The notes below the pieces were generated by a model that did no database searches, was not told the origin of the DNA, and saw only the letters and a program-made list of their open reading frames with translations. 44,317 bases of DNA from the sequence record PV625053.1. The stretch is one strand, 5' to 3'. How positions within the stretch are numbered: position 1 is the stretch's first letter; every line of letters starts with the position of its first letter. This document shows, one piece after another, positions 3,643 to 38,034 of the stretch. The position numbers and the translations under genes are program-made. This DNA is from Klebsiella phage vB_Kpn_004_Koku.

Positions 3643-6044
3643 TGGAAGTTCAAGGCTCATTAGGCAGGCAGATTCAAGGTATCAGCCAGCAACCGCCAGC
3701 CGTCCGCCTTGACGGGCAATGCACAGATATGGTTAACATGGTTCCAGATGTTGTTGATGGAACTAAATCCCGCATGGGTACAACTCACCTGAACAAACTG
3801 ATGGCAAAAGGCGAGGACAACATGGCATTCCACCATTACCGTCGAGGTGACGGCGATGAGGAATACTTCTTCGTCATGAAGCAAGGTGCGATCCCTGAAA
3901 TCTTTGATCGCATGGGTAATCGCTGCAATGTCACCTCTTCCGACGCACCTATGGTCTACCTTAGCGAAGTGCAGAACCCAAGGGAAGATGTACAGTTCAT
4001 GACTATTGCAGATGTAACATTCATGCTTAACCGTAGGAAGGTCGTCCGTGCGAGAGAAGAGCGATCACCAAAGGTTGGTTCGACTGCCCTAGTCTTCTGT
4101 GCTTATGGCAATTACGGTACGAAGTACCAGATCACTATTAATGGTCAGGTTGCTGCCGAGTACAAGACAAAGGATGGCGGGGAAGCAAGTCATGTAGAAA
4201 CTATCCGAACCGAGGTTATCGCAGAGCAGTTATTCGTGCAACTACAGCAATGGGATGGTGTGTCACAGTATGATGTATCCCGGATGGGTACTACAATTGT
4301 GATCACCCGCAAGGATGGTAACACTGACTTCACTGTGAGCACCGAGGATGGTGCGAAAGGAAGAGACTTGGTGGCTATCAAGTACAAAGTTACCTCCACT
4401 GACCTGCTGCCGAGTAAGGCACCAGAAGGGTACAAGGTGCAGGTATGGCCTACAGGCAGTAAGCCTGAATCTCGTTACTGGCTGGTGGCTGAGAAAGCAG
4501 AGGGCAACCTTGTGACGTGGAAGGAGACAATCGCAGCAGATGTGAAGTTGGGATTCGACAAGAACACCATGCCCTACATCATTGAGCGCACAGGTATCGT
4601 CGGAGGTGTGGCGCAATTCAAGATTCGCCAAGGTGATTGGGAAGACCGTCGGGTCGGTGACGACTTGACTAACCCGATGCCATCGTTCATTGACGACGAG
4701 GTGCCGCAGCGCTTGGGAGGTATGTTCATGGTACAAAACCGTCTTTGTGTAACAGCAGGCGAGGCTGTAATCATGTCCCGTACTTCCCACTTCTTTGACT
4801 TCTTCCGGTACACGGTAGTATCTGCACTAGACACTGACCCGATTGATATCTTCTCTGATGCAAGCGAGGTCTACCAGCTAAAGCACGCTATCACCTTAGA
4901 CGGCGACACGGTATTGTTCTCTGACAACTCTCAGTTCATCCTACCGGGTGACAAGGCGCTGACCAAGGATAACGCACTGCTGAAACCTGCTACTGCCTTC
5001 GAGGTGAACAACAACGTTCGCCCGGTGGCTACAGGTGAGTCTGTCATGTTCGCTACGAGTGAAGGCTCCTACTCTGGCATCCGGGAGTTCTATACGGATT
5101 CCTACTCTGATACCAAGAAGGCACAGCCTATCACAAGTCACGTCAATAAGTTGATTGAGGGCAACATCATCTCAATGGTGGCAAGTTCCAACATCAACCG
5201 CTTATTCGTGATGGCTGACAAGAACCGCAATGTGGTCTACGTTTATGACTGGCTCTGGCAAGGAACTGACCGAGTGCAGGCAGCCTGGCATCGTTGGGTG
5301 TGGCCTACTGACGTCAAGGTACGAGCGATGTTCTACTCCAGTGAAACGGTATACCTCCTCATTGAGCGAGGGAGTCAGGGTTTATTCCTTGAGAAGATGG
5401 ATATGGGTGACGCTATAGAGTACCACCTTGAAGACCAGATTCGCTTAGACCGCAAGGCGCTCATCTCCTTTGCCTATGACGCTGCGTCGGATGGCTGGTA
5501 CTCTAGCGCGCTTCCGTGGTGGCCGGAGCATCCAGAGATGCTAGAGTGTGTCCTTACGCAAGGGTGGCCTGCCTATGTCGGTGGCTCTTTCCTGTTCCAA
5601 CATGAAGGTGCTGGTAACAGGTTGCATACCACTTTTGACCTTGGCGAAGAGGGCTCTATCGTTCATTGTGTGGTAGGTGAGCATTACTCGCAAGAGTTTG
5701 AGCCTACACCTGTAGTGATCAAAGACTCTCAAGGTCGTACCTCGTACATCGATACGCCTGTCGTTGGGCTCGTTCATCTTAACTTGGACAAGTATCCAGA
5801 CTTCACCGTAGAAATCACGAATGCTTCCGGGCGCAAGCGCGTAGCTAAGGCATCGAACCGCATAGGCGGTGCCCCCAACAACATTGTTGGTTACGTTAAG
5901 CCGAAGGAGGGTATATTCAAGTTCCCGCTACGTGCCAAGGGCACAGATGCGACATACCGTATCAAGTCTGTAGCACCGCACACATTGCAGCTACGGGACA
6001 TTGAGTGGGAGGGTTCGTACAATCCAAGTAAGAGGAGGGTGTAA
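3642..6044 (+). CDS. tail tubular protein B (gp12-like)
   Basis: ORF-track start at 3630 is a TTG; ATG at 3642 sits 5 nt after GGAGG. N-terminus ..LGRQIQGISQQPPAVRLDGQ.. recalls T7 gp12 ..KGGISQQPDILRYPDQ.. Confidence 0.85.
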   Translation: MEVQGSLGRQIQGISQQPPAVRLDGQCTDMVNMVPDVVDGTKSRMGTTHLNKLMAKGEDNMAFHHYRRGDGDEEYFFVMKQGAIPEIFDRMGNRCNVTSSDAPMVYLSEVQNPREDVQFMTIADVTFMLNRRKVVRAREERSPKVGSTALVFCAYGNYGTKYQITINGQVAAEYKTKDGGEASHVETIRTEVIAEQLFVQLQQWDGVSQYDVSRMGTTIVITRKDGNTDFTVSTEDGAKGRDLVAIKYKVTSTDLLPSKAPEGYKVQVWPTGSKPESRYWLVAEKAEGNLVTWKETIAADVKLGFDKNTMPYIIERTGIVGGVAQFKIRQGDWEDRRVGDDLTNPMPSFIDDEVPQRLGGMFMVQNRLCVTAGEAVIMSRTSHFFDFFRYTVVSALDTDPIDIFSDASEVYQLKHAITLDGDTVLFSDNSQFILPGDKALTKDNALLKPATAFEVNNNVRPVATGESVMFATSEGSYSGIREFYTDSYSDTKKAQPITSHVNKLIEGNIISMVASSNINRLFVMADKNRNVVYVYDWLWQGTDRVQAAWHRWVWPTDVKVRAMFYSSETVYLLIERGSQGLFLEKMDMGDAIEYHLEDQIRLDRKALISFAYDAASDGWYSSALPWWPEHPEMLECVLTQGWPAYVGGSFLFQHEGAGNRLHTTFDLGEEGSIVHCVVGEHYSQEFEPTPVVIKDSQGRTSYIDTPVVGLVHLNLDKYPDFTVEITNASGRKRVAKASNRIGGAPNNIVGYVKPKEGIFKFPLRAKGTDATYRIKSVAPHTLQLRDIEWEGSYNPSKRRV

Positions 6045-6757: not shown

Positions 6758-9703
6758 ATGGCAATTGAGCGTCAAGCTGTGCAAGGCTTGCAGCAGGTGA
6801 AGTCTACGGGCGGCCCTCGTATGGCAGGAACCTCTGCAATCCAAGTGAGCGAGCCTCAAATTCGACGTAGCGGCTCATCATTCATCGACGATATCTTTAG
6901 TGCCGCTGGTGCCTTCGCTACGGTTGGCACCGAGATTATGCAGCAAGCCGTTGAAGACGATAAGGTACGTCAGTATGACCGCGCCTTGCAGGGCTTGATG
7001 CCTTCCGATGATGCGACTGTGGGTGGTGCTCGCGCCCACATGCTGGTGCAGTTACAGAATGATGTGCTGGGCCACACCATCGCATTGCAGGATGAAGCCA
7101 AGCGGTTCCAAGGCTCGGATGAAGAGTGGGAGCAGAAGGTGGTTGACTCCCGCAACGCTATCCAAGCCAAGGTCTACCAGCAATATCCGGGCCTGCAAGG
7201 GGATAAGGATACAATGCGCCTCGTCTCCAATGCATTCATGGAGCAGCAGCCTAAGATCTTCGCAGCAAGGGCAAGTGCCAAGCTGGAGCGGGAAGCACAG
7301 CAGCGCACCGAGGCAATGCATTCTCGCGTATTGATGGTGACGGAAGGTCTGTCTGGTAGTTCACTGGATGCGGCACTTCACCAGCTACAGCAGGAGGCCG
7401 TCACCATGCAGCTTACCAAGCCTGAGTATGAAGAGATGATTGCTCAGATTGCAATGGAACGGGCGGCCATTGGTGATTCAACATTCGTTGAAGCCACTAA
7501 ATCCTTGAAGGATGCTAATGGCATTTCCTTGTATCAGCGTAATGGCAAACTACAGACTGCCGAGATTCAGGCTAACCGGAATTGGGCTGCTCAGAATCAG
7601 GTGGAACTCTTCGAGAAGAAGGATGCAGCGATTCAGGCATTCACTAAGGGTGAGCTTGACCGGGAAGAGATGCTCAAGATTATGCAGAACCACAATGAAA
7701 TCTCTGGTGGCACTGCATGGTCTGACGGTGAGATCAAATCCTTGTTCGACCGTGTAGCTAAGAAGAATGCCGAGGATGCCAAGATGCAGGATCTACTGGC
7801 CCGTGGTCAGACTGGATCGCCGCTTGGCTTGCAGGATATCAGCAACGAAGACCGCAAGGCATATGCCGAGGCTTTGGCTGGCACCTACACCAAGCTGGCT
7901 GAGGATGAGATCAAGCGCACTGGCGCTACCGGAGATCAGGCCGAAGCTATCCGTGGTCGTTACGAGCAGATGCGCTATCTCAAGCTGGGACAAGACCTCA
8001 TCAAAGACCCAAACATTCAGGCACGCTATGACTCCCTGATGCAAATGTCCTCTGCCAACCTCAAGGATATGAATACGGAGCCGGAGGCGCTCAAGACGCT
8101 GATGAATGCCCGCGACTCTATCCCGGAGGATGCACGTCGTGCCGTCATGGGCGACAAGGAGTACGCCTTTGTCGAGAACTATGACCGTGCATTGCAGATG
8201 GGTTATAACGTGGGTCAGGCTGTGGAGTTCGCGCAGAACGTTGCCAAGGGTGAGAAGCTACAAGGCTCCGTCCTCAAAGAGCTATCCTCGGATGTGGAGG
8301 GTATTGTTGATGATATCGCTGGTGGTAGCTGGCTTACTCGTGGCGACAACATGAGTGAAGCTGGTCGCAGTATTGTGTTGGACGATGCTATGACTATTGC
8401 CCGCGCCATGAAGGTGGCTGGTCACAACAACGACACCATCAAACGTCACCTGCAATCCTATCTCACCTCTCAATACACTCAGCTATCAGAGGGTTTCTTC
8501 ACGCAAGGTGTGTTGGTCAAAGGTGACGCTCGCGCTTTAGGTGACGCTATAGGAGTGAACCAGAAGGACGTACCTATCGCGCTTCGTCAATACATTAATA
8601 ATCACAAGCAAGAGTTGCTTGATCAATCTGGAGGAATGAGTGAAGAGGATATCTACGTGGATGTTGACTCTAAGCGTGGCATGTTTGTTATTCGTGCTGG
8701 CTCAGGTCGCACTCCCCTCACCCCAGCAATGCCGCTCTCTGAAATTAAAGGACAATCCCTACTTCGAGAGCATTACGACGCTAAAGTAAAAGAGCGCGAC
8801 GAAGCCAAGAAGAACTTCGAGGCGCAGCAGATGCGCATGTGGGGTGCTGGTGGCTACCAAGCACAGCCTCTACAGAAAGGTGATGTGACAGCGAAAGCCG
8901 TAGGGAAGCGGGGTATCGCTGACTTCTTAATGTCTCCCGCCTTTGCAGCAGGTGAGAACCTTCCGAAGAACTTCGAGTTCGGCTACGACAAGAAGAATCA
9001 GGACTTCTTCGACTATGTAGCCAAGACAGAGAACGGCATGAACGTAGGCTTCGACCGTGTAGCAGGTGTGTACACCCCGTACAAAGATGCGCATGGTCAG
9101 TCTGTAGGTTACGGTCACTTCCTCACTGCCGAAGAGAAAGCTAATGGTTACATTATGATTGGCACTGATAAAGTCCCATTCAAACCGGGTCAGTCGCAAC
9201 TCACCCCGGATCGAGCCATGCGCCTTCTCAAGCAGGACATGAAGAAGAACGTACCGTCTACCAAAGATTGGGCCATCCCTTTCGATGCGATGCACCCAAG
9301 TACCCAGCGTGGTATCATGGACTTGACCTATAACTTAGGTAAGACTGGCATCCAGAAGTCACCAAAGGCATACGCAGCTTTCAAGGCTGGACGTATCACT
9401 GATGGCTTCATTGAGATGTTAGGCACCGCATCTACCGAGGGTAAGCGCAGTCCGGGATTGCTGGTTCGTCGCGCAGAAGCGTATAACATGGCACAAAGTG
9501 AAGCAGGTGTTCCTCGTATCAGCGAGGTGGAGACGCGAGCAGACGGCTCTATGTACGTCAAGTTCGCAGGTAAGATGTCACCTGCATTCGTAAGCAAGAG
9601 CATTCACAGTCGTATCGATAAGAACGGGTGGATGCAAGTGTACCCGCCTGGTGCTGGCAAGTTGGTTGCTGGTGCCAAAGTGGGTAAGGTGAAAGTTAAG
9701 TAG
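6758..9703 (+). CDS. internal virion protein B (gp15-like) with C-terminal T4-lysozyme-like (GH24) domain
   Basis: 981 aa; residues ~750-910 (..AKTENGMNVGFDRVAGVYTPYKDAHGQSVGYGHFLT.. / ..MDLTYNLGKTG..) match T4 lysozyme catalytic E...D...T region (..[22 protein letters not shown]..). Confidence 0.8.
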   Translation: MAIERQAVQGLQQVKSTGGPRMAGTSAIQVSEPQIRRSGSSFIDDIFSAAGAFATVGTEIMQQAVEDDKVRQYDRALQGLMPSDDATVGGARAHMLVQLQNDVLGHTIALQDEAKRFQGSDEEWEQKVVDSRNAIQAKVYQQYPGLQGDKDTMRLVSNAFMEQQPKIFAARASAKLEREAQQRTEAMHSRVLMVTEGLSGSSLDAALHQLQQEAVTMQLTKPEYEEMIAQIAMERAAIGDSTFVEATKSLKDANGISLYQRNGKLQTAEIQANRNWAAQNQVELFEKKDAAIQAFTKGELDREEMLKIMQNHNEISGGTAWSDGEIKSLFDRVAKKNAEDAKMQDLLARGQTGSPLGLQDISNEDRKAYAEALAGTYTKLAEDEIKRTGATGDQAEAIRGRYEQMRYLKLGQDLIKDPNIQARYDSLMQMSSANLKDMNTEPEALKTLMNARDSIPEDARRAVMGDKEYAFVENYDRALQMGYNVGQAVEFAQNVAKGEKLQGSVLKELSSDVEGIVDDIAGGSWLTRGDNMSEAGRSIVLDDAMTIARAMKVAGHNNDTIKRHLQSYLTSQYTQLSEGFFTQGVLVKGDARALGDAIGVNQKDVPIALRQYINNHKQELLDQSGGMSEEDIYVDVDSKRGMFVIRAGSGRTPLTPAMPLSEIKGQSLLREHYDAKVKERDEAKKNFEAQQMRMWGAGGYQAQPLQKGDVTAKAVGKRGIADFLMSPAFAAGENLPKNFEFGYDKKNQDFFDYVAKTENGMNVGFDRVAGVYTPYKDAHGQSVGYGHFLTAEEKANGYIMIGTDKVPFKPGQSQLTPDRAMRLLKQDMKKNVPSTKDWAIPFDAMHPSTQRGIMDLTYNLGKTGIQKSPKAYAAFKAGRITDGFIEMLGTASTEGKRSPGLLVRRAEAYNMAQSEAGVPRISEVETRADGSMYVKFAGKMSPAFVSKSIHSRIDKNGWMQVYPPGAGKLVAGAKVGKVKVK

Positions 9704-9715
9704 TGTCATACTCAA

Positions 9716-9746
9716 GGGTTGTCCAACACGTTGGACAGCCTTTTAT
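9716..9746 (+). terminator. terminator-like hairpin built on palindrome copy
   Basis: GGGTTGTCCAAC-AC-GTTGGACAGCC then TTTTAT. Confidence 0.55.
9720..9737. repeat. palindrome copy TGTCCAACACGTTGGACA
   Basis: member of 9-copy family GTCCAAC-NN-GTTGGAC; intergenic. Confidence 0.9.
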
Positions 9747-15078: not shown

Positions 15079-16976
15079 TGGCAAAGGCAAGGGAGTCCCA
15101 AGCGGAAGCCCTTGCCCGTTGGGAAATGCTGCGAGAACTACAGCAGGCATTCCCCTATACGGTGCAGGGCTTACTGTCGTTCGCTCAGGTGGTAATCAAT
15201 ACACTAATCACTGGCAACCCCGACCTGAACCGAGTACAAGCCGATATCCTCAAGTTCCTGTTCTCAGGAAACAAGTATCGGATGGTAGAAGCGCAGCGTG
15301 GTCAGGCTAAGACTACCATCGCTGCAATCTATGCGGTGTTCCGTATCATTCACGAACCGCACAAACGCATCATGATCGTATCACAGACAGCCAAGCGAGC
15401 CGAGGAAATCGCAGGGTGGGTGATTAAGATCTTCCGTGGATTGGACTTCCTTGAGTTCATGCTTCCTGATATCTACGCAGGTGACAAGGCTTCAATCAAA
15501 GGCTTCGAGATCCACTATACCTTACGTGGAAGTGACAAGTCTCCGTCTGTCGCTTGCTACTCTATCGAAGCAGGTATGCAGGGTGCGCGTGCAGATATCA
15601 TTCTGGCGGACGACGTTGAGTCGTTGCAGAATAGCCGTACCGCCGCAGGCCGTGCATTGCTGGAGGACTTGACCAAAGAGTTCGAATCCATTAACCAGTT
15701 TGGTGATATCATCTACCTAGGGACGCCGCAGAGCGTTAACTCCATCTACAACAACCTCCCGGCGCGTGGCTACCAGATTCGTATCTGGCCCGGTCGCTAT
15801 CCAACGCTGGAGCAAGAGGCTTGCTATGGGGACTTCTTGGCACCGATGATCCGCCAAGACATGCTTGATAACCCGAACCTTCGATCCGGTTACGGCATCG
15901 ACGGAACTCAAGGGGCACCAACCTGCCCGGAGATGTACGACGATGAGAAGTTGATTGAGAAGGAGATCTCGCAGGGTACGGCTAAGTTCCAGCTACAGTT
16001 CATGCTGAACACTCGCCTGATGGATGCAGACCGCTACCCATTACGCCTGAACAACCTGATCATGATGAGCTTTGGCACCGATGTAGTCCCGGAGATGCCG
16101 ACTTGGAGCAACGATTCGATGAACCTTATCGGCGATGCACCACGCTTCGGTAACAAGCCTACGGACTACCTGTACCGCCCTGTGGCCCGCCCGTATGAGT
16201 GGCGACCGATTCAACGCCGTGTCATGTATATTGACCCGGCTGGTGGCGGTAAGAACGGTGACGAAACGGGCGTAGCTATCGTCTTCCTGCTAGGGACATT
16301 CATCTACGTCTATAAGTGCTTCGGTGTGCCGGGCGGGTACTCGGATAGCGCGCTCAGTCGCATTGTGCGCGAAGCAAAGGCCGCAGAGGTCAAAGAGGTC
16401 TTCATAGAGAAGAACTTCGGTCACGGTGCGTTTGAGGCGGTAATTAAGCCATATTTCGAAAGAGAGTGGCCTGCCGAGTTGAAAGAGGATTATGCGCACG
16501 GACAGAAGGAAGTGCGTATCATCGAGACACTGGAGCCTCTATTCTCTGCGCACCGCATCATCTTCAACGCGGAGATGATTAAGCAGGACATAGACAGCAT
16601 CCAGCACTACCCGCTCGAAACACGTATGAGCTACAGCTTGTTCGGTCAAATCTCGAACATTACTCTGGAGAAAGGATGCCTGCGGCATGACGACCGCTTA
16701 GACGCCCTGTACGGCGCTATACGGCAATTAACTTCTCAGATAGACTATGACGAGGTTAACCGGATAAATCGGCTCAGGGCGCAGGAGATGCGCGATTATC
16801 TGGACATGATGCACGACCCTCGGAGACGACGGGAGTTCTTTACCGGGCAAGACCACGGCTATCGCCCTCGGACGAACACCAGCGATGCCCGTATCCAGTC
16901 CGTGTGGGGTAAATCGGTGCGGCCTAAAACTCGTTCTCGGAATACACTTTCTTCAAGAATTTCAAGGACTTGGTAA
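15078..16976 (+). CDS. terminase large subunit (DNA maturase B, gp19-like)
   Basis: 632 aa, AAGGAGG SD, ATG overlaps upstream stop; P-loop-like ..RGQAKTT.. ; syntenic. Confidence 0.85.
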   Translation: MAKARESQAEALARWEMLRELQQAFPYTVQGLLSFAQVVINTLITGNPDLNRVQADILKFLFSGNKYRMVEAQRGQAKTTIAAIYAVFRIIHEPHKRIMIVSQTAKRAEEIAGWVIKIFRGLDFLEFMLPDIYAGDKASIKGFEIHYTLRGSDKSPSVACYSIEAGMQGARADIILADDVESLQNSRTAAGRALLEDLTKEFESINQFGDIIYLGTPQSVNSIYNNLPARGYQIRIWPGRYPTLEQEACYGDFLAPMIRQDMLDNPNLRSGYGIDGTQGAPTCPEMYDDEKLIEKEISQGTAKFQLQFMLNTRLMDADRYPLRLNNLIMMSFGTDVVPEMPTWSNDSMNLIGDAPRFGNKPTDYLYRPVARPYEWRPIQRRVMYIDPAGGGKNGDETGVAIVFLLGTFIYVYKCFGVPGGYSDSALSRIVREAKAAEVKEVFIEKNFGHGAFEAVIKPYFEREWPAELKEDYAHGQKEVRIIETLEPLFSAHRIIFNAEMIKQDIDSIQHYPLETRMSYSLFGQISNITLEKGCLRHDDRLDALYGAIRQLTSQIDYDEVNRINRLRAQEMRDYLDMMHDPRRRREFFTGQDHGYRPRTNTSDARIQSVWGKSVRPKTRSRNTLSSRISRTW

Positions 16977-16995
16977 TTAGGGGACACTATAGAAG
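16975..16995 (+). promoter_or_regulatory. SP6-type promoter variant after terminase gene
   Basis: AATTAGGGGACACTATAGAAG; followed by AT-rich repeat element. Confidence 0.75.
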
Positions 16996-17063
16996 GAAGA
17001 CCAAGGTAATAAAGGATATTATGGGTAATATAGGATTACCTAGGTTATATAGGTACGCCTTAT
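16996..17063 (+). repeat. AT-rich iteron-like element A downstream of promoter
   Basis: GAAGGAAGACCAAGGTAATAAAGG then ATAGGTA/TATAGG repeats; first 36 nt identical to element at 35334. Confidence 0.7.
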
Positions 17064-17065
17064 TA

Positions 17066-17098
17066 TGAGGGTACTCCAGTACCCTCTTCTTACCTATT
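17066..17098 (+). terminator. hairpin/attenuator downstream of promoter 16975
   Basis: GAGGGTAC-TCCA-GTACCCTC perfect stem followed by TTCTTACCTATTTC. Confidence 0.45.
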
Positions 17099-17128
17099 TC
17101 ACTGTTTACTATAAACAAGGAGTACAGA

Positions 17129-23685: not shown

Positions 23686-23744
23686 CCAAAGGTGGTCACA
23701 AAGTAACCAAAGTCAAAATTTTGATATAGGCGTGTGTCAGCTCT

Positions 23745-23935
23745 CTCGCCCGTCGCCCGTCCGGATTGTCCCCATAGGGGTGCCTAGGGCATTTCTAGGG
23801 CCGGAGGGCGGGACTAGGGCGTTTCTTAGTGAGGGCCAAAGGGTTGCCGGAGGCTGGGCGGGAGGGCGCGATAGGGACACGCAGAGGACGCTTGACAGCG
23901 TGGGAGGGCGTGGGCTATCTGTTCCTTTTTGTGCC
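23745..23935. repeat. genome-terminus region: CCCCATAGGGG palindrome, CTAGGG and GGGAGGGCG repeats (putative terminal repeat / concatemer junction)
   Basis: CCCCATAGGGG parallels the CCCCCATAGGGGG in T7 terminal repeat; GGGAGGGCG occurs three times with a fourth near-copy; non-coding. Confidence 0.5.
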
Positions 23936-23937
23936 TA

Positions 23938-24110
23938 GCCTTGCTTAGTGTTACCTTATGCACTTCCTTATCGTGTACCTTATGCAAGTCTTAGTGACTA
24001 ACTTAGTGCATACCTTAGTAGCTACCTTAGTGATTACCTTAGTCACAACCTATCAATCCTTAGTGTTACCTTAGTGAATTGCATAGCTAAAGCTATAAGA
24101 TGCTATTAGG
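23938..24110. repeat. array of short CCTTAGTG / ACCTTAGT-type direct repeats
   Basis: about 9 tandemly spaced copies of (A)CCTTAGTG-like units, positional analog of T7 left-end CCTAAAG repeats between terminal repeat and first early promoter. Confidence 0.6.
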
Positions 24111-26686: not shown

Positions 26687-29308
26687 ATGCAAGATCTAAT
26701 GAACATGCAGCTTCAACTTGAAGACGAGATGTTTAACGGTGGTATCCGCCGCTTTGAAGCTGACCAGCAGCGCCAGATTGCAAGCGGTAATGAATCCGAT
26801 ACTGCATGGAATCGCCGCCTGCTGTCTGAATTGATTGCACCTATGGCCGAGGGTATCCAAGCGTATAAAGAAGAGTACGAAGGTAAGAAAGGCCGCGCCC
26901 CGCGTGCTCTTGCTTTCCTGCAATGCGTAGAAAACGAGGTTGCAGCCTACATCACCATGAAAGTGGTTATGGATATGCTGAACACCGATGTAACCCTTCA
27001 AGCTATTTCTATGGCGGTGGCTGACCGCATTGAAGACCAAGTCCGCTTTAGCAAGCTGGAAGGTCACGCCGCTAAATACTTTGAGAAAGTCAAAGCAAGC
27101 CTGAAAGCAAGCCGCACTAAATCTTATCGCCACGCGCATAACGTATGCGTAGTTGCTGAGAAATCAGTGGCGGCTAAAGATGGCGAGTTCGACCGCTGGG
27201 AGGCATGGCCTAAAGACACCCTCCTGCAAATCGGGACTACCTTGCTTGAAATCTTGGAGAATAGCGTATTCTTTAATGGTGAGCCTGTATTCATGCGTGC
27301 AATGCGTGCGGTAGCTGGTAAAACTGTCTACTACCTGCAAACGTCTGAAACCGTGGGCGAGTGGATCGCAGCATTCAAAGACCACGTAGCGCAACTGTCC
27401 CCGGCTTATGCTCCTTGCGTAGTACCGCCGCGTCCTTGGGTATCCCCGTTCAATGGCGGCTTCCACACTGAGAAGGTGGCTAGTCGTGTTCGTCTGGTCA
27501 AAGGCGACCGCGAACATGTTCGCAAGCTGACCAAAAAGCAGATGCCTAAAGTTTACAAGGCTGTTAACGCCCTGCAAAACACTCAATGGCAAATTAACAA
27601 GGAAGTATTAGCGGTAGTGGAGGAAGTGATCCGCCTTGACCTTGGTTATGGTAAGATTCCACACTTCAAGCCCATCATTGACAAGGAGAACAAGCCAGCG
27701 AACCCGGTTCCGGTTGAGTTCCAGCACCTTCGCGGGCGTGAGTTAAAGGAAATGCTCACCGCTGACCAGTGGCAAGCCTTCATTAACTGGAAGGGCGAAT
27801 GTGCGAAGCTGTACACCGCAGAGACTAAGCGCGGCTCCAAGTCCGCCGCCGTGGTTCGCATGGTTGGACAGGCTCGCAAATACAGCGCTTTTGATGCGAT
27901 TTACTTCGTATATGCACTGGATAGCCGTTCCCGCGTTTATGCGCAGTCTAGCACGCTCTCACCGCAGTCTAACGACTTAGGCAAGGCATTGCTCCGCTTC
28001 ACCGAAGGGCAGCCGCTTGACACCGCTGAGGCGCTTAAATGGTTCCTCATCTCCGGCGCTAACCTGTGGGGTTGGGATAAGAAAACCTTTGATGTACGTC
28101 AAGCTAACGTGTGGGATGCAGAGTTTCAAGATATGTGCCGGGATATCGCCGCCGACCCGCTCACCTTCACACAGTGGGCTAAAGCGGACGAGCCTTACGA
28201 GTTCCTCGCATGGTGCTTTGAATATGCCCGCTATCTGGATGCTCTGGAAGATGGCACCCGCGATGAGTTCCGCACGCACTTACCAGTACACCAAGACGGC
28301 TCATGCTCTGGCATCCAGCACTATAGCGCTATGCTGAAAGATGAGCGCGGCGCTATCGCTGTTAACCTGAAACCGGGAGACGCTCCGCAAGATATTTACG
28401 GCGCGGTTGCGCAGGTGGTTATTGCGAAGAATGCCCTGTACATGGACGCCGACGAAGGGCTGACCTTCGAATCTGGTAGCCTGAAACTGTCCGGCGCTGA
28501 CCTCCGCGCGATGGCGAATGCCTGGGATATGGTAGGCATCACCCGGTCACTGACCAAGAAGCCTGTTATGACCCTGCCGTATGGCTCCACTCGCCTAACC
28601 TGCCGCGAATCTGTGATCGACTACATCGTTGATCTGGAAGAGAAAGAGGCGCAGAAAGCAGCAGTAGAAGGGCGGGCATCTAACAAGGTACACCCGTTCG
28701 AAGAAGGGCAGGCACTGGAACCAGCGATGGCATACAACTACATGACTGCTTTGATTTGGCCGTCAATCTCTGAGGTTGTGAAGGCTCCGATTGTTGCGAT
28801 GAAGATGATTCGCCAGCTTGCACGCTTCGCAGCTAAACGCAACGAAGGGCTGGAATATACGCTGCCGACTGGCTTCATCCTGAAACAGAAAATCATGGCA
28901 ACCGAAATGCTCCGCGTGCGTACCTGTCTGATGGGTGATATCAAGATGAGCCTGCAAGTGGAAACTGACATTGTAGATGAAACTGCAATGATGGGCGCAG
29001 CAGCACCGAATTTTGTACACGGTCACGATGCGAGCCACCTGATTCTCACAGTCTGCGATCTGGTAGACAAGGGTATCAAATCTATAGCTGTGATTCACGA
29101 CTCCTTCGGGACTCATGCAGGCCGTACCTTAGACCTCCGCAACTCCCTGAAAGGGCAGATGGTGGAAATGTATGAACACACTAACGCACTGGAGAAACTA
29201 CTGGAAGAACACGAAGAACGCTGGAAGGTTGACACTGGCATCAAAGTACCAGAGCAAGGCACCTTCGACGTCCGGGAAATCTTAGAGTCTGACTATTGCT
29301 TCGCTTAA
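26687..29308 (+). CDS. single-subunit DNA-directed RNA polymerase (SP6 RNAP-like)
   Basis: 873 aa (SP6 RNAP is 874 aa as I recall); long stretches match SP6 RNAP as I recall it ([28 protein letters not shown]..; ..[20 protein letters not shown]..; ..[10 protein letters not shown]..); the genome uses SP6-consensus promoters. Confidence 0.95.
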
Positions 29309-29315
29309 TATTAAT

Positions 29316-29348
29316 AGGGCCAGCCTTCGGGTTGGCCTTTTCTTTTGC
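29316..29348 (+). terminator. terminator after RNAP gene
   Basis: GGCCAGCC-TTCG-GGTTGGCC (one G-U) followed by TTTTCTTTTG. Confidence 0.75.
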
Positions 29349-29374
29349 CTATCACCTGTTACATTTCATTAACA

Positions 29375-29392
29375 AGTCCAACGTGTTGGACA
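29375..29392. repeat. palindrome copy AGTCCAACGTGTTGGACA
   Basis: 8 bp upstream of promoter 29401. Confidence 0.9.
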
Positions 29393-29400
29393 CGATGCAG

Positions 29401-29421
29401 ATTTAGGAGACACTATAGGAC
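29401..29421 (+). promoter_or_regulatory. SP6-type promoter variant (origin region, left)
   Basis: ATTTAGGAGACACTATAGGAC. Confidence 0.7.
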
Positions 29422-29537
29422 TACCCGTCGGAGACGGAAAGTAATAGGTAGTTAAAGGTAATAAAGGGAAGATAGGTAATATAGGTAGTCCTAGGTTACA
29501 CTTCCTTTATTCTCCTTCCTTATTACCTCAGGGAGTC
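29422..29537 (+). repeat. AT-rich iteron-like element C between two promoters (candidate primary origin)
   Basis: AAAGGTAATAAAGGG, ATAGGTAATATAGGTAG, imperfect inverted repeat ..GGTAATAAAGGGAAG../..CTTCCTTTATT..CCTTATTACC. Confidence 0.65.
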
Positions 29538-29538
29538 C

Positions 29539-29556
29539 TGTCCAACGTGTTGGACA
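29539..29556. repeat. palindrome copy TGTCCAACGTGTTGGACA
   Basis: 4 bp upstream of promoter 29561. Confidence 0.9.
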
Positions 29557-29560
29557 ACCT

Positions 29561-29581
29561 ATTTAGGTGACACTATTGAAC
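29561..29581 (+). promoter_or_regulatory. SP6-type promoter variant (origin region, right; gene 1.1)
   Basis: ATTTAGGTGACACTATTGAAC. Confidence 0.7.
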
Positions 29582-29609
29582 AAGACTAACTTACTTTGGA
29601 GATTCAATC

Positions 29610-29735
29610 ATGCGTAACTTCGAGAAAATGACCCGTAAATCTACCCGCTTCGATGAGTTCGAAGGGAAGAAAGGTAGCAAGCGTAATAAGATTGTACGCG
29701 ACCGTGCATCTAAACGCGCTGCATGGGAGATCTAA
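29610..29735 (+). CDS. gp1.1-like small basic protein (41 aa)
   Basis: MRNFEKMTRKSTRFDEFEGKKGSKRNKIVRDRASKRAAWEI vs T7 gp1.1 MRNFEKMTKRSNRNARDFEATKGRKLNKTKRDRSHKRSWEGQ; GGAG SD; same position after the origin-like region. Confidence 0.8.
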   Translation: MRNFEKMTRKSTRFDEFEGKKGSKRNKIVRDRASKRAAWEI

Positions 29736-29738
29736 GTT

Positions 29739-31727
29739 ATGGCGATCATCAATAACATCCCTTGCCCGATGTGCCAGAAGAACGGGCACGATAAATCCGG
29801 CAACCATCTAATGATCTTTGAGGATGGTGCTGGTTACTGTAACCGTAGTCACTTCCACGACAACGGACGACCTTACTACCACAAGCCCGAGGGCGGCATC
29901 GAGATCACAGAGCTACCTATCAATGGTTCAATCAAGTACACTCCTGCACAATTCCGTGACTTGGAGAAAGAAGGGAAGATAGCAGACCCTAAACTACGTG
30001 CCATCGCCCTTGGTGGTATGCGAATGAAAGACCGCTGGGAGGTCATGAATGACGAAGAGAAGGCAGAGCAAGAAGCCGAGTGGCAACTTGATGTTGAGTG
30101 GTTCCTTGAACTTAAAAGGAAGAACCTTGTATCACGACACATTCGAGGCGACATTTGTGCGCTGTATGACGTCCGAGTCGGTCATGATGGTGAAGGGAAG
30201 GTTAACAGGCATTACTACCCTCGCTTCGAGAATGGCAAACTTGTAGGCGCGAAGTGCCGGACACTCCCTAAAGACTTCAAGTTCGGGCATCTTGGTAAGC
30301 TATTCGGCAATCAGGATATGTTCGGTATGAACACCATGTCCAACGTGTTGGACAAGGGCCGTCGCAAAGACGTGCTGTTAATTGTCGGCGGCGAACTTGA
30401 TGCGATGGCTGCGCAGCAGATGCTGATGGATGCAGCTACTGGCGACTGGAAGGGCAAGCCTTATCACGTCTGGTCTGTGAACAAGGGCGAGTCTTGCCTT
30501 GAAGAGATCGTCCAGAACCGGGAGCACATCTCGCAGTTCAAGAAAATTATATGGGCCTTCGACGGTGACGAGGTAGGGCGCAAGCAGAACCAGCAAGCGG
30601 CCCGCCTGTTCCCCGGCAAGTCCTATATCCTTGAGTACCCTGCCGGGTGCAAGGATGCGAACAAGGCGCTGATGGCTGGCAAGTCGAAGGAGTTCGTCGA
30701 TGCATGGTTCAACGCCAAGTCCAGCGAGGAAGTCTTCGGTAGCCAGATTAAGTCCGTTGCGTCGATGCGTGACGAACTCAAGAAGGCCCGACCAGAGGAG
30801 GGACTGTCATGGCCTTGGCCTAAGCTGAACAAGGTTACGCTGGGTATTCGTAAGCACCAGCTTATCATCGTCGGCGCAGGCTCCGGTGTGGGTAAGACCG
30901 AGTTCCTACGCGAAGTGGTTAAGCACCTCATCGAAGAGCATGGGGAATCCGTTGGTATTATCTCGACGGAAGACCCGACCAAGAAGGTGGCGCGTGCATT
31001 CATCGGGAAGTGGATCGACAAGCGCATTGAGTTGCCGCCGACAAATGACCCGACCGAAGATGGCTATCGTGAGGTACTTGACTACACAGATGAGGAAGCG
31101 GCAGCAGCTATCGACTACGTAGCAGATACAGGTAAGTTCTTTGTAGCTGATCTCGAAGGTGACTACTCAATGGAGAAGATTGAGCAGACCTGCCTAGAGT
31201 TCGAAGCTATGGGGATTCAGAACATCTTTATTGATAACTTAACGGGGATTAAATTAGATGAGAGAGCATATGGTGGTAAGGTTGGAGCGCTTGATGAGTG
31301 CGTCAAAAGGATTGGAACTATCAAAGACCGACATCCTGTTACGATCTTCCTTGTCAGTCACCTTACTCGCCCTTCGGGACAACGTACCCAACACGAAGAA
31401 GGTGGTGAAGTTATCCTTTCTGACTTCCGAGGCTCAGGAGCTATCGGATTCTGGGCTTCTTACGCCTTGGGGATTGAGCGTAACACACGAGCTGAATCGC
31501 TTGATGAAAGAACTACCACGTACATCTCATGCGTCAAAGACCGTGACCAAGGGATTTTCACGGGGACTAAGGTCATGCTTAAAGGCGACCTTGCAACCGG
31601 TAGATTGAAGGAACCTCAAGCACGAACCAAGAGCTTTGACACAGGTGTACCTAAGCAGCAGGAAGTACCTGATGATTTAGGTGACACTATAGAACAAGGT
31701 AACTTCGAGGAAGAGCAGGAGTTCTAG
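29739..31727 (+). CDS. DNA primase/helicase (gp4-like)
   Basis: 662 aa; N-terminal Cys4 zinc ribbon CPMCQKNGHD..CNRSH, Walker A GAGSGVGKTEF, acidic C-terminal tail ..NFEEEQEF ending in Phe as in T7 gp4. Confidence 0.9.
   Translation: MAIINNIPCPMCQKNGHDKSGNHLMIFEDGAGYCNRSHFHDNGRPYYHKPEGGIEITELPINGSIKYTPAQFRDLEKEGKIADPKLRAIALGGMRMKDRWEVMNDEEKAEQEAEWQLDVEWFLELKRKNLVSRHIRGDICALYDVRVGHDGEGKVNRHYYPRFENGKLVGAKCRTLPKDFKFGHLGKLFGNQDMFGMNTMSNVLDKGRRKDVLLIVGGELDAMAAQQMLMDAATGDWKGKPYHVWSVNKGESCLEEIVQNREHISQFKKIIWAFDGDEVGRKQNQQAARLFPGKSYILEYPAGCKDANKALMAGKSKEFVDAWFNAKSSEEVFGSQIKSVASMRDELKKARPEEGLSWPWPKLNKVTLGIRKHQLIIVGAGSGVGKTEFLREVVKHLIEEHGESVGIISTEDPTKKVARAFIGKWIDKRIELPPTNDPTEDGYREVLDYTDEEAAAAIDYVADTGKFFVADLEGDYSMEKIEQTCLEFEAMGIQNIFIDNLTGIKLDERAYGGKVGALDECVKRIGTIKDRHPVTIFLVSHLTRPSGQRTQHEEGGEVILSDFRGSGAIGFWASYALGIERNTRAESLDERTTTYISCVKDRDQGIFTGTKVMLKGDLATGRLKEPQARTKSFDTGVPKQQEVPDDLGDTIEQGNFEEEQEF
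30337..30354. repeat. palindrome copy TGTCCAACGTGTTGGACA inside primase-helicase CDS
   Basis: encodes MSNVLDK in frame. Confidence 0.9.
31674..31694 (+). promoter_or_regulatory. SP6-type promoter inside 3' end of primase-helicase gene
   Basis: ATTTAGGTGACACTATAGAAC; encodes DLGDTIEQ in the helicase. Confidence 0.85.
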
Positions 31728-35322: not shown

Positions 35323-35343
35323 ATTTAGGTGACACTATAGAAG
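35323..35343 (+). promoter_or_regulatory. SP6-type promoter after DNAP
   Basis: ATTTAGGTGACACTATAGAAG exact; followed by AT-rich repeat element. Confidence 0.9.
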
Positions 35344-35400
35344 GAAGACCAAGGTAATAAAGGTCTTATAGGTAGTATAGATAAATAAGGTAAATATAGG
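35344..35400 (+). repeat. AT-rich iteron-like element B downstream of promoter
   Basis: GAAGGAAGACCAAGGTAATAAAGG then TATAGGTAGTATAGATAAATAAGGTAAATATAGG. Confidence 0.7.
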
Positions 35401-35409
35401 AGATTAAAT

Positions 35410-35787
35410 ATGTCAATGGTAACTACTCTGGTAGCCCTGTCTCAATTCTTCCGTACTATGGCAGTACGTATGCGTGACAAGGCGGTGCGTGCTATTGAAG
35501 ACCGCATCGATGTAATCCAAGATCGTCAGGTTGAACTGGAAGAAAGTCGTAGTGCCCTGATGGTTGACTGCCACTCAAGCCACTACAAGAAGGTCGAGGC
35601 TCTCAAGGCTTGGCGTGAAGCTGAACTGGCTCGCATCGAGAAGGAGTTTGAGGCTAAGGCAGGCAAAGAGAGTGCTCGCTTCCAAGAGCAGAAGCGTACA
35701 ATCGCGGTAATGTCACAGGCTAAGTCTGACGAACTCAAGCGTGAACTGGTAATGCTTCGCACTGAACTGGACAACCTGACTAAGTAA
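35410..35787 (+). CDS. hypothetical coiled-coil protein (125 aa)
   Basis: ORF after promoter 35323 and AT-rich leader; Glu/Arg/Lys-rich helical sequence. Confidence 0.6.
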   Translation: MSMVTTLVALSQFFRTMAVRMRDKAVRAIEDRIDVIQDRQVELEESRSALMVDCHSSHYKKVEALKAWREAELARIEKEFEAKAGKESARFQEQKRTIAVMSQAKSDELKRELVMLRTELDNLTK

Positions 35788-37301: not shown

Positions 37302-37679
37302 ATGTTCACTATCGAAACCCTGTCTAACCGTGTTGTCAAAGCTGGTAAACTGGAAGTTGTTGAGTCCTTCATCATTGTTGACGAAGCTGGCGCACTGGTA
37401 GCTGGCACCAAAGCCTACGACACCCGCGAAGAAGCACAGGCTAAGATCGACAGCATGGGTAACTTCGCCACTGGTCTGGAGTTCGCACGTGCAATGTACG
37501 GCGATCAGGCTGACAAGGCACAGATCGGTAAGGCAAACATCGTTGCTGAATTCCTGGATTGGGTTGCTGCTGGCAAGCCTGTGAAGGAAGCCAAAGCTGA
37601 CGCTGCTGTAGAAGAAGCTGCTCCGGTCGAGGAAGCTGCTGCTCTGGCAGACATTGTTAGCGAAGAAGAAGAGTTCTAA
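37302..37679 (+). CDS. hypothetical protein with acidic C-terminal tail ending ..SEEEEF
   Basis: 125 aa after promoter 37237 (AAGGAG SD); Ala/Glu-rich C-terminus ending in Phe; followed by a terminator. Confidence 0.65.
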   Translation: MFTIETLSNRVVKAGKLEVVESFIIVDEAGALVAGTKAYDTREEAQAKIDSMGNFATGLEFARAMYGDQADKAQIGKANIVAEFLDWVAAGKPVKEAKADAAVEEAAPVEEAAALADIVSEEEEF

Positions 37680-37740: not shown

Positions 37741-38034
37741 ATGCCGACTATTGAATCTCGTATCTGCTTTGACTATAACTTCAATATGTTGACCCTGATG
37801 TACGAAGGCATTGCTTATATCCAGAATGGATACCATTGGGAGTACGGTAAGCAAGAGCTTATCGCCAAGGTAGAGGATCGGGATGAACAACGCATGAGGC
37901 GTAAACTAGGGAGTAAGGTCAAGGCATTCTTGGAGGAATGGCCTACATGCGACCAAACTTCAACTTCGGAGCTACAGTATCGGAAGACAATAATCTCATC
38001 CTGTGGCCGACTGACGGTAAAAGAATCGCTCTAA
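37741..38034 (+). CDS. hypothetical protein (97 aa), overlaps exonuclease start by ~95 nt
   Basis: ATG 10 nt after GGAG, fills a 257-nt gap after the terminator; different frame from exonuclease gene. Confidence 0.4.
   Translation: MPTIESRICFDYNFNMLTLMYEGIAYIQNGYHWEYGKQELIAKVEDRDEQRMRRKLGSKVKAFLEEWPTCDQTSTSELQYRKTIISSCGRLTVKESL

Follow-up and report, generated by a model that had tools for sequence, protein, structure and literature searches.

In bacteriophage T7, replication starts at the tandem promoters phi1.1A and phi1.1B, with secondary origins, for example phiOR and phi6.5, used when these are deleted, and a T7 promoter is essential to every T7 origin (PMC8373140). As annotated in the T7 record, the RNA polymerase (RNAP) gene ends at 5822, the +1 positions of phi1.1A and phi1.1B are at 5848 and 5923, respectively, and gene 1.1 begins at 6007. 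Starting with its first base, the phi1.1A leader forms a hairpin that takes up the space between the two promoters (z -3.2), and the AT-rich stretch of the region is the 84-nt leader after phi1.1B, for which the GC content of the first 80 transcribed bases (GC80) is 0.29, as compared with a GC content of 0.45 in the inter-promoter spacer. The inter-promoter hairpin is the R1.1 RNase III site reported by Dunn and Studier 1983. Here we analyse the corresponding locus, between the RNAP gene and the gp1.1 homolog, of Klebsiella phage vB_Kpn_004_Koku (PV625053.1); the whole 44,317-nt stretch, a circularly permuted SP6-like genome with about 97% identity to Kpp-61 and K1-ULIP33, is referred to as the window.

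With a probability that we put at about one half, the locus is the SP6-group equivalent of the T7 gene 1/1.1 control region, in which tandem promoters are combined with a structured leader that would act mainly on the transcript from the first promoter (P1). In favour of this are the orthologous flanking genes and the same promoter pair as in T7, deep conservation that includes lineages with a different promoter consensus, covariation in a small hairpin (H1), hairpin potential beyond that given by arm composition together with a mild sense-strand bias, the folding from +1 also of the T7 phi1.1A leader, and insertions of HNH genes that spare P1, H1, the repeat array and its complementary arm. 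A preliminary description had proposed the locus as the primary replication origin, with two promoters flanking an AT-rich iteron block bounded by two palindrome copies. The elements that it listed are all present where it had placed them and in the same order, far above chance, and are as follows, from 5' to 3'.

26687..29308, + strand: gene for the phage single-subunit RNAP, left flank, an open reading frame (ORF) of 873 aa
29316..29349, + strand: terminator-like hairpin (hairpin proper 29316-29339) and T run, directly 3' of the RNAP stop codon
29376..29391, no strand assigned: palindrome copy 1, GTCCAACGTGTTGGAC (GTCCAAC-GT-GTTGGAC), at -42 to -27 relative to the P1 start
29401..29418, + strand: phage-RNAP promoter P1, ATTTAGGAGACACTATAG; +1 is the G at 29418; one mismatch to the window consensus
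29425..29437, + strand: H1 hairpin, CCGTCGGAGACGG, a 5-bp stem with a GGA triloop (CCGTC-GGA-GACGG), at +8 to +20 of the P1 transcript
29443..29499, + strand: purine-rich repeat array, six AGG(T/A/G)(A/T) units in direct repeat, TRF period 9
29500..29538, + strand: pyrimidine-rich arm, CTTCCTTTATT..CCTT..ATTACCT..GGGAGTCC, complementary to the repeat array and the 5' end of the transcript
29418..29538, + strand: long imperfect hairpin over the whole P1 leader, from the P1 +1, as the minimum free energy (MFE) fold
29540..29555, no strand assigned: palindrome copy 2, GTCCAACGTGTTGGAC, at -38 to -23 counted from the start of the second promoter (P2)
29561..29578, + strand: phage-RNAP promoter P2, ATTTAGGTGACACTATTG; +1 is the G at 29578; one mismatch to the consensus
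29579..29609, + strand: short P2 leader (a 32-nt leader) with a Shine-Dalgarno sequence (GGAG at 29598)
29610..29735, + strand: gp1.1 homolog, 41 aa, with homology to T7 gp1.1 and phrog_2490
29739-31727: primase/helicase gene, 3' of the gp1.1 homolog

Promoter pair and P1 leader

The ORF at 26687..29308 carries an RNAP annotation in Klebsiella phages that are 95-97% identical, in SP6 and in K1-5. Over the 501 bases around the locus, identity is 95-97% to the Klebsiella phages Kpp-61, pKP-M186-2.1 and K1-ULIP33 (Autographiviridae, Molineuxvirinae) and 72-80% to SP6, K1-5, K1E and many relatives. On the right flank, the ORF previously called a gene 1.1 homolog is a true homolog of T7 gp1.1 (59% identity, E 6e-12) with a match to phrog_2490, and the R4596 record cites Pfam Phage_1_1 for it. 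The terminator-like hairpin, with a 10-bp stem that has six GC pairs and is followed by TTCTTTTGCC, is kept in all relatives and corresponds to a putative rho-independent terminator annotated in the PM 93 and R4596 records. It would presumably end host-polymerase transcription of the RNAP gene, and its position directly after that gene differs from that of T7 TE, at 7588.

For comparison, 25 relatives were retrieved via the C-terminus of the RNAP, and hence independently of the non-coding sequence, and the set was then enlarged with further phage records and metagenomic contigs. A pattern scan of IMG/VR for a promoter plus H1 gave 74 matches, from which the 23 with AGG arrays were retained; most of the 74 (L093, for example) are chance matches inside coding regions, and the metagenome scan contributed few new variants. 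The layout terminator, palindrome, P1, H1, AGG array, pyrimidine arm, (palindrome), P2 and gp1.1 is conserved in ~12 lineages that span SP6, the K1-5/K1E group, the Proteus Acadevirus phages, the Klebsiella group and several uncultured lineages, and is kept even where the promoter consensus is quite different, as exemplified by TTAATTGTGGCGAGTATAG. A comparison with the SP6 and K1-5 sequence after gene 8 had been called for in the preliminary description, and the same layout is found in both. Conservation across lineages with different promoter types rules out a chance origin of the elements. A hidden small ORF was also considered as an explanation and rejected; the small ORFs annotated in the spacer in some records are on either strand and are not conserved.

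There are 14 matches in the window to the 18-nt SP6-type promoter consensus, all on the + strand, versus 0.02 expected. P1 and P2, recognized earlier as promoters at 29401 and 29561, are of this SP6 type, and the spacer between them, from the P1 +1 to the first base of the P2 promoter, is 143 nt, as compared with 58 nt in T7. In all relatives the P1 position is occupied by a promoter of the lineage's own type, also where the consensus is different, and a lineage-specific promoter pair is conserved throughout. At P2, TATAG is replaced by TATTG in the SP6/Klebsiella group, and the K1-5 and Proteus groups have CAGTATAG. Such a conserved, lineage-specific deviation suggests a promoter that may be deliberately tuned, being weaker or differently regulated. 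Both promoters are placed such that they would drive gp1.1 and the primase/helicase gene. The spacer contains three phage promoters instead of two in a metagenomic contig (L110) and in Salmonella phage SE29 (L120). Genes for HNH homing endonucleases are inserted directly 3' of P2 in UAB_Phi78 (L018), BP12B (L016), PM 93 (L027), L116 and VEc3 (L128), and after the hairpin in PST_H2 (L121). They replace or precede gene 1.1 and, as all are 3' of the hairpin, P1, H1, the array and the arm remain contiguous in every one.

H1, which had been noted as a small GC hairpin and is found as such at 29425-29437, is unique in the window and is present in all 24 RNAP-anchored relatives whose DNA extends that far. 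Its third stem pair, in 19 distinct sequences, is GC in 11, AU in five, UA in two and CG in one, and is never unpaired; the covariation score was reached by none of 500 shuffles. The remaining four pairs and the GGA/GAA loop are invariant, although this invariance is partly built into the search pattern. H1 is a selected hairpin, supported by covariation.

The sense strand of the P1 leader, from 29418 to 29538, forms an imperfect hairpin of ~120 nt with ~40 pairs and internal loops, adjoined on its 3' side by the stem-loop of the second palindrome, and the fold of 29418-29560 has an MFE of -46.6 kcal/mol (z -2.5). The preliminary description had listed an iteron block and an imperfect inverted repeat. 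The latter is borne out, with 29456-29467 imperfectly complementary to 29504-29528, and since the repeat array pairs with the downstream arm, the two are one object. With shuffling confined to the arms, z is -2.3 in the window and from -2.7 to -8.4 in 11 other lineages; complementarity of array and arm exceeds that given by arm composition in every one of the 12 lineages. The stems vary by lineage, with AATAAAGGGAAG/CTTCCTTTATT in the window, TAATAGGAAG/CTTCCTATTA in SP6 and AAGGAGAGGTAA/TTACCTCTCCTT in L110, and the helix that closes from the P1 +1 is confined to the Klebsiella group. There is a mild strand bias, the sense strand being more stable than the antisense strand in nine of the 12 lineages, and among internal pairs in the long hairpins there are 17 G-U versus four A-C mismatches. 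The transcript hairpin has a length of at least about two helical turns with internal loops, lies between both promoters after gene 1 and starts at the first +1, as would be expected of an R1.1-like element.

In common with the T7 gene 1/1.1 region, the locus has orthologous flanks and two tandem phage-RNAP promoters, a hairpin that starts at the +1 of the first promoter and fills the inter-promoter space, and AT-rich sequence within the region. The architectural match to T7 that had been proposed therefore stands with regard to synteny and to the promoter pair (phi1.1A/phi1.1B), but not with regard to the AT-rich element, which in T7 is the 84-nt leader after the second promoter whereas here the AT-rich part is between the promoters and the leader after the second is 32 nt. 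Given this position between the promoters, the counterpart of the block in T7 is the R1.1 hairpin rather than the AT-rich origin element. Also unlike T7, there is a periodic AGG repeat with a pyrimidine arm, an extra conserved 5' hairpin, H1, and palindromes that flank P1 and the structured leader. In T7, both origin activity and RNase III cleavage are known experimentally, whereas the comparison made here is one of sequences.

As read from the sequence, the P1 leader is composed of H1, the AGG(T/A)A array and the complementary pyrimidine arm, with the array folding back on the arm in the sense strand and the resulting hairpin occupying the position of T7 R1.1. This element may act in RNase III-type processing, stability or translation control of the long P1 transcript versus the short P2 transcript. 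The AT-rich, purine-skewed P1 leader may also let phage-RNAP transcripts prime DNA synthesis, as might any such T7-type promoter; origin activity is possible, but it is not an established or unique role of the locus.

Several results weigh against assigning the locus to such a control region. When ten hairpins from the SP6/Klebsiella group were aligned with MAFFT, RNAalifold returned no common structure (-0.58 kcal/mol) and no compensatory pairs, and the long hairpins may therefore not be column-homologous; formal covariation support is for H1 alone, with none for the long helices. An Rfam scan of 29250-29700 gave sub-threshold noise only and no family match, and the searchable literature yielded no data on RNase III cleavage or transcript ends for SP6-like phages. 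It is also not obvious why a plain processing hairpin should have a strict 9-10 nt period. In addition, AGG repeats are present in the leader of the promoter at 35323 (see below), which does not fold, and hence the repeats must serve a role that is independent of the hairpin.

Given what is established for the T7 supergroup, tandem promoters after an SP6-like RNAP gene and the analogy with T7 are to be expected. Almost no public record of this phage group has annotations for H1, the periodic AGG leaders or the dispersed palindrome, and none of the three was found in the searchable literature, with the primary SP6 and K1-5 genome papers being outside that search. At present, the finding amounts to a sound analogy rather than a discovery; a vague analogy has been converted into three concrete conserved candidate elements with coordinates and predictions. 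The SP6-like group includes many therapeutic phages of Klebsiella, E. coli K1 and Salmonella.

Possible origin activity

If the locus were the primary replication origin, with the mechanism of T7 phi1.1A/phi1.1B, the phage RNAP would start at P1 or P2, the AT-rich, purine-skewed transcript would stay as an R-loop or prime the phage DNA polymerase, and the displaced strand, possibly folded as a hairpin, would load the primase/helicase. We consider this a tentative and somewhat doubtful interpretation. It is consistent with the exact synteny with the T7 primary origin promoters (PMC8373140), the position being again between the RNAP gene and gene 1.1, with the presence of P1 and P2 as matches to phage-RNAP promoters, and with the deep conservation of a ~140-170 nt non-coding spacer. 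By extension from T7 biology, the first phage promoters after the RNAP gene would also be the first able to fire. The block is AT-rich, with a minimum GC content of 0.32 in 60 nt and 0.36 in 100 nt, which places it in the lowest 1-2% of windows, and the 60-nt window that starts at 29430 is the second most purine-rich in the genome. It is, however, behind the GC-rich H1 and between the promoters, and the genome is more AT-rich elsewhere. The T7 AT-rich element follows the second promoter, and at that position here there is a 32-nt leader, right where HNH insertions are tolerated.

Ranking the promoters by GC80 also argues against a primary origin at this locus. As a control, the ranking was made over all 17 T7 promoters, among which the lowest values are those of phiOL, phi1.1B, phi6.5 and phiOR, and these include the origins named in PMC8373140. 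In the window, P1 and P2 share a value of 0.41, which places them 8th-10th among the 14 promoters, whereas the promoter after the DNA polymerase gene (35323, GC80 0.30) ranks first, as do its counterparts in SP6 and K1-5; the second-lowest of the 14 is the leader of the promoter at 16975. By the T7 rule of a promoter plus AT-rich DNA, the 35323 promoter and its leader would be at least as good an origin candidate. A putative bidirectional origin of SP6 has been linked to gene 14 (DNA polymerase) by Dobbins et al. 2004, according to PMC4837284. Furthermore, the block also follows two other promoters and so is not unique to the locus.

The trinucleotide 5'-GCA-3' is absent from both strands of 29418-29609, as compared with 2.4-4.7 expected occurrences. 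The recognition site of the SP6 primase is reported by Tseng et al. 2000 to be GCA; if the primase of this phage shares that specificity, the AT-rich region would have no site for it. The sole GCA/TGC in 29376-29609 is in the sequence GATGCAG, at 29396-29399, just upstream of P1, and GATGCGG is conserved upstream of P1 in the SP6/Klebsiella group. Cumulative GC and AT skews for SP6, K1-5 and the rotated window show a monotonic rise without an inflection, and so the origin cannot be located by skew. No experimentally mapped replication origin of an SP6-like phage was found in the searchable literature. Origin function at the locus, proposed by analogy with T7, is plausible but is not uniquely supported. 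If present, it would matter for phage engineering, in terms of where insertions are safe, and would bear on transcription-replication coupling outside the T7 genus.

Periodic AGG repeats and sister leaders

The AGG units of the array start at 29446, 29456, 29465, 29474, 29483 and 29493, with spacings of 10, 9, 9, 9 and 10, and the direct repeats AGGTAATAAAGG / AGGTAATATAGG and ATAGGTAG have the core AGG[T/A]A. Complementary CCT/TACCT motifs are present in the pyrimidine 3' arm. Of 97 distances between one AGG and the next in 18 leaders, 70 are 9 or 10 nt, versus 7% in shuffles, and most of the others are ~18-19; the spacers between the AGG cores vary among lineages whereas the period does not. 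These periodic arrays are the least explained and most interesting feature of the locus, and could be R-loop/unwinding zones, protein-binding arrays or ribosome-related leader elements. The same type of leader follows two other promoters in the window.

16975..17060, + strand: sister element, promoter and AGG-repeat leader, after the terminase gene
35323..35409, + strand: sister element, promoter and AGG-repeat leader, after the DNA polymerase gene

AGG leaders are also present at the promoters syntenic with those at 16975 and 35323, which are at 37773 and 12542, respectively, in SP6 and at 37593 and 12580 in K1-5, and the motif follows three promoters in three genera. At 35323, a consensus promoter is followed by an AGG array that extends up to the Shine-Dalgarno sequence and ATG of a 125-aa gene; no other 100-150 nt of the genome is as AT-rich as this leader, which is unstructured (folding z +0.4 for 35340-35430). 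The first 24 transcribed bases of the 16975 leader, GAAGGAAGACCAAGGTAATAAAGG, are the same as in the 35323 leader, and a GC-rich hairpin, GAGGGTACTCCAGTACCCTC, follows within 16975-17100. No functional clue came from a PHROGs scan of the genes that lie 3' of the three repeat leaders. Near the left end of the genome, positions 23940-24077 of the window contain an array of ~8 TACCTTAGTG-type units with a period of 12 nt, directly to the right of the G-rich terminal region at 23720-23900. AAGGTA, the core of the AGG repeats that follow promoters, is found in opposite orientation in the complement of this array, and counterparts are located at 222-293 and 443-509 in SP6 (L031) and at 518-575 in K1-5 (L032).

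The three AGG leaders resemble the T7 secondary origins (phiOL, phiOR and phi6.5) in being promoter-proximal and AT-rich, and include the two promoter leaders with the lowest GC content in the window. The T7 leaders are, however, without a strict short-period repeat; TTAAG recurs in T7 origin leaders with no strict period, and for this reason no homology is claimed for the repeat arrays. It is conceivable, though we think it unlikely, that the AGG(T/A)A arrays are an undescribed promoter-proximal class of elements in the SP6 group that mark sites at which transcripts become primers (R-loop/unwinding) after the RNAP, DNA polymerase and terminase genes. If so, the same recognition would extend to the related inverted array at the left end, and the SP6 group would have an origin set unlike the T7 design of a promoter plus plain AT-rich DNA.

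In the preliminary description the block was called an iteron block. Its AT-rich repeats are confirmed, but the term does not fit a 9-10 nt period in what is the 5' arm of a hairpin, as opposed to repeats of 17-22 bp. As in iteron origins (plasmid Rep and lambda O arrays), there are tandem direct repeats beside or within AT-rich DNA, with some inverted copies. Unlike those origins, in which repeats of ~17-22 bp are unique to the origin, the units here have a length of 9-10 nt and a core of 5-6 nt, there are three loci with the array in each genome, the array is inside a transcribed leader where it is self-complementary with a downstream arm, and there is no known cognate initiator gene. When seven nearby ORFs were compared with PHROGs, five matched families of unknown function and none was initiator-like, with no systematic search having been made.

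The array could nevertheless function as double-stranded DNA, bound by a phage or host protein in an iteron-like manner or for bending or wrapping, and the same protein would then bind the sister leaders and the inverted array at the left end, linking transcription with replication or packaging. The 9-10 nt period, which is regular in every lineage despite variable spacers between the cores, fits with this, as do the motif common to three promoters in three genera, the inverted copies (TACCT) in the 3' arm and the 12-nt-period array with a complementary core at the left end of the window, SP6 and K1-5. We nevertheless judge a DNA-binding array improbable, as a 5-6 nt core is very short for specific recognition by a protein, a 9.5-bp period does not hold sites on one face of B-DNA and folding is slightly better for the sense than for the antisense strand. 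T7-like phages are not known to have an initiator-type gene, and the neighbours scanned against PHROGs are without known function.

In RNA, the AGG repeats could resemble Shine-Dalgarno sequences and serve as A/U-rich landing sites for 30S/S1, or could protect the leader from RNases, with the pyrimidine arm, which resembles an anti-Shine-Dalgarno sequence, masking the repeats in the P1 leader. This is suggested by the 35323 leader, in which the array is unstructured up to the true Shine-Dalgarno sequence and ATG, by the sequence logo, in which the AGG core has a fitting A/U context, and by the presence of ACCTCCTT in the SP6 arm, a sequence identical to the 3' end of 16S rRNA. Such a role seems improbable, however, given that the leader of the major capsid gene (promoter 1562) has no array, that the genes served have no assigned function and that the strict 9-10 nt period is left unexplained.

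A dispersed palindrome

The preliminary description had the block bounded by two copies of a palindrome. Both copies are present, at 29376-29391 and 29540-29555, but with nine sites per genome the palindrome is a genome-wide repeat and hence not an origin boundary. GTCCAACGTGTTGGAC has nine sites in the window, equivalent to 18 strand matches as compared with 0.31 expected, and the 16-bp family GTCYMAC-NN-GTKRGAC is located at 9721, 24203, 29376, 29540, 30338, 31745, 32687, 37206 and 41928. Seven of the nine copies are intergenic, with those at 30338 and 41928 inside ORFs. SP6 likewise has nine sites, at syntenic and mostly intergenic positions, and there are five in K1-5, where the variant is GTCTCAC..GTGAGAC. 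Those at 9721, 31745 and 32687 are terminator-like, each with an extended stem and a U-rich tail.

No mention of the palindrome sequences was found in the searchable literature. A protein that co-varies with the type of palindrome was sought by comparing SP6, K1-5 and the window with SE29, in which SP6-type promoters are combined with K1-5-type palindromes in the vicinity of the RNAP gene; there was no clean partition because SE29 carries both variants as well as hybrids. Three copies of the palindrome are 5-15 nt upstream of promoters. A palindrome of the same family is upstream of P1 in every lineage examined, and one precedes P2 in the SP6 and K1-5 groups. In the SE29 spacer, each of the three promoters, including the extra one, has its own upstream copy, and this suggests a palindrome-plus-promoter module.

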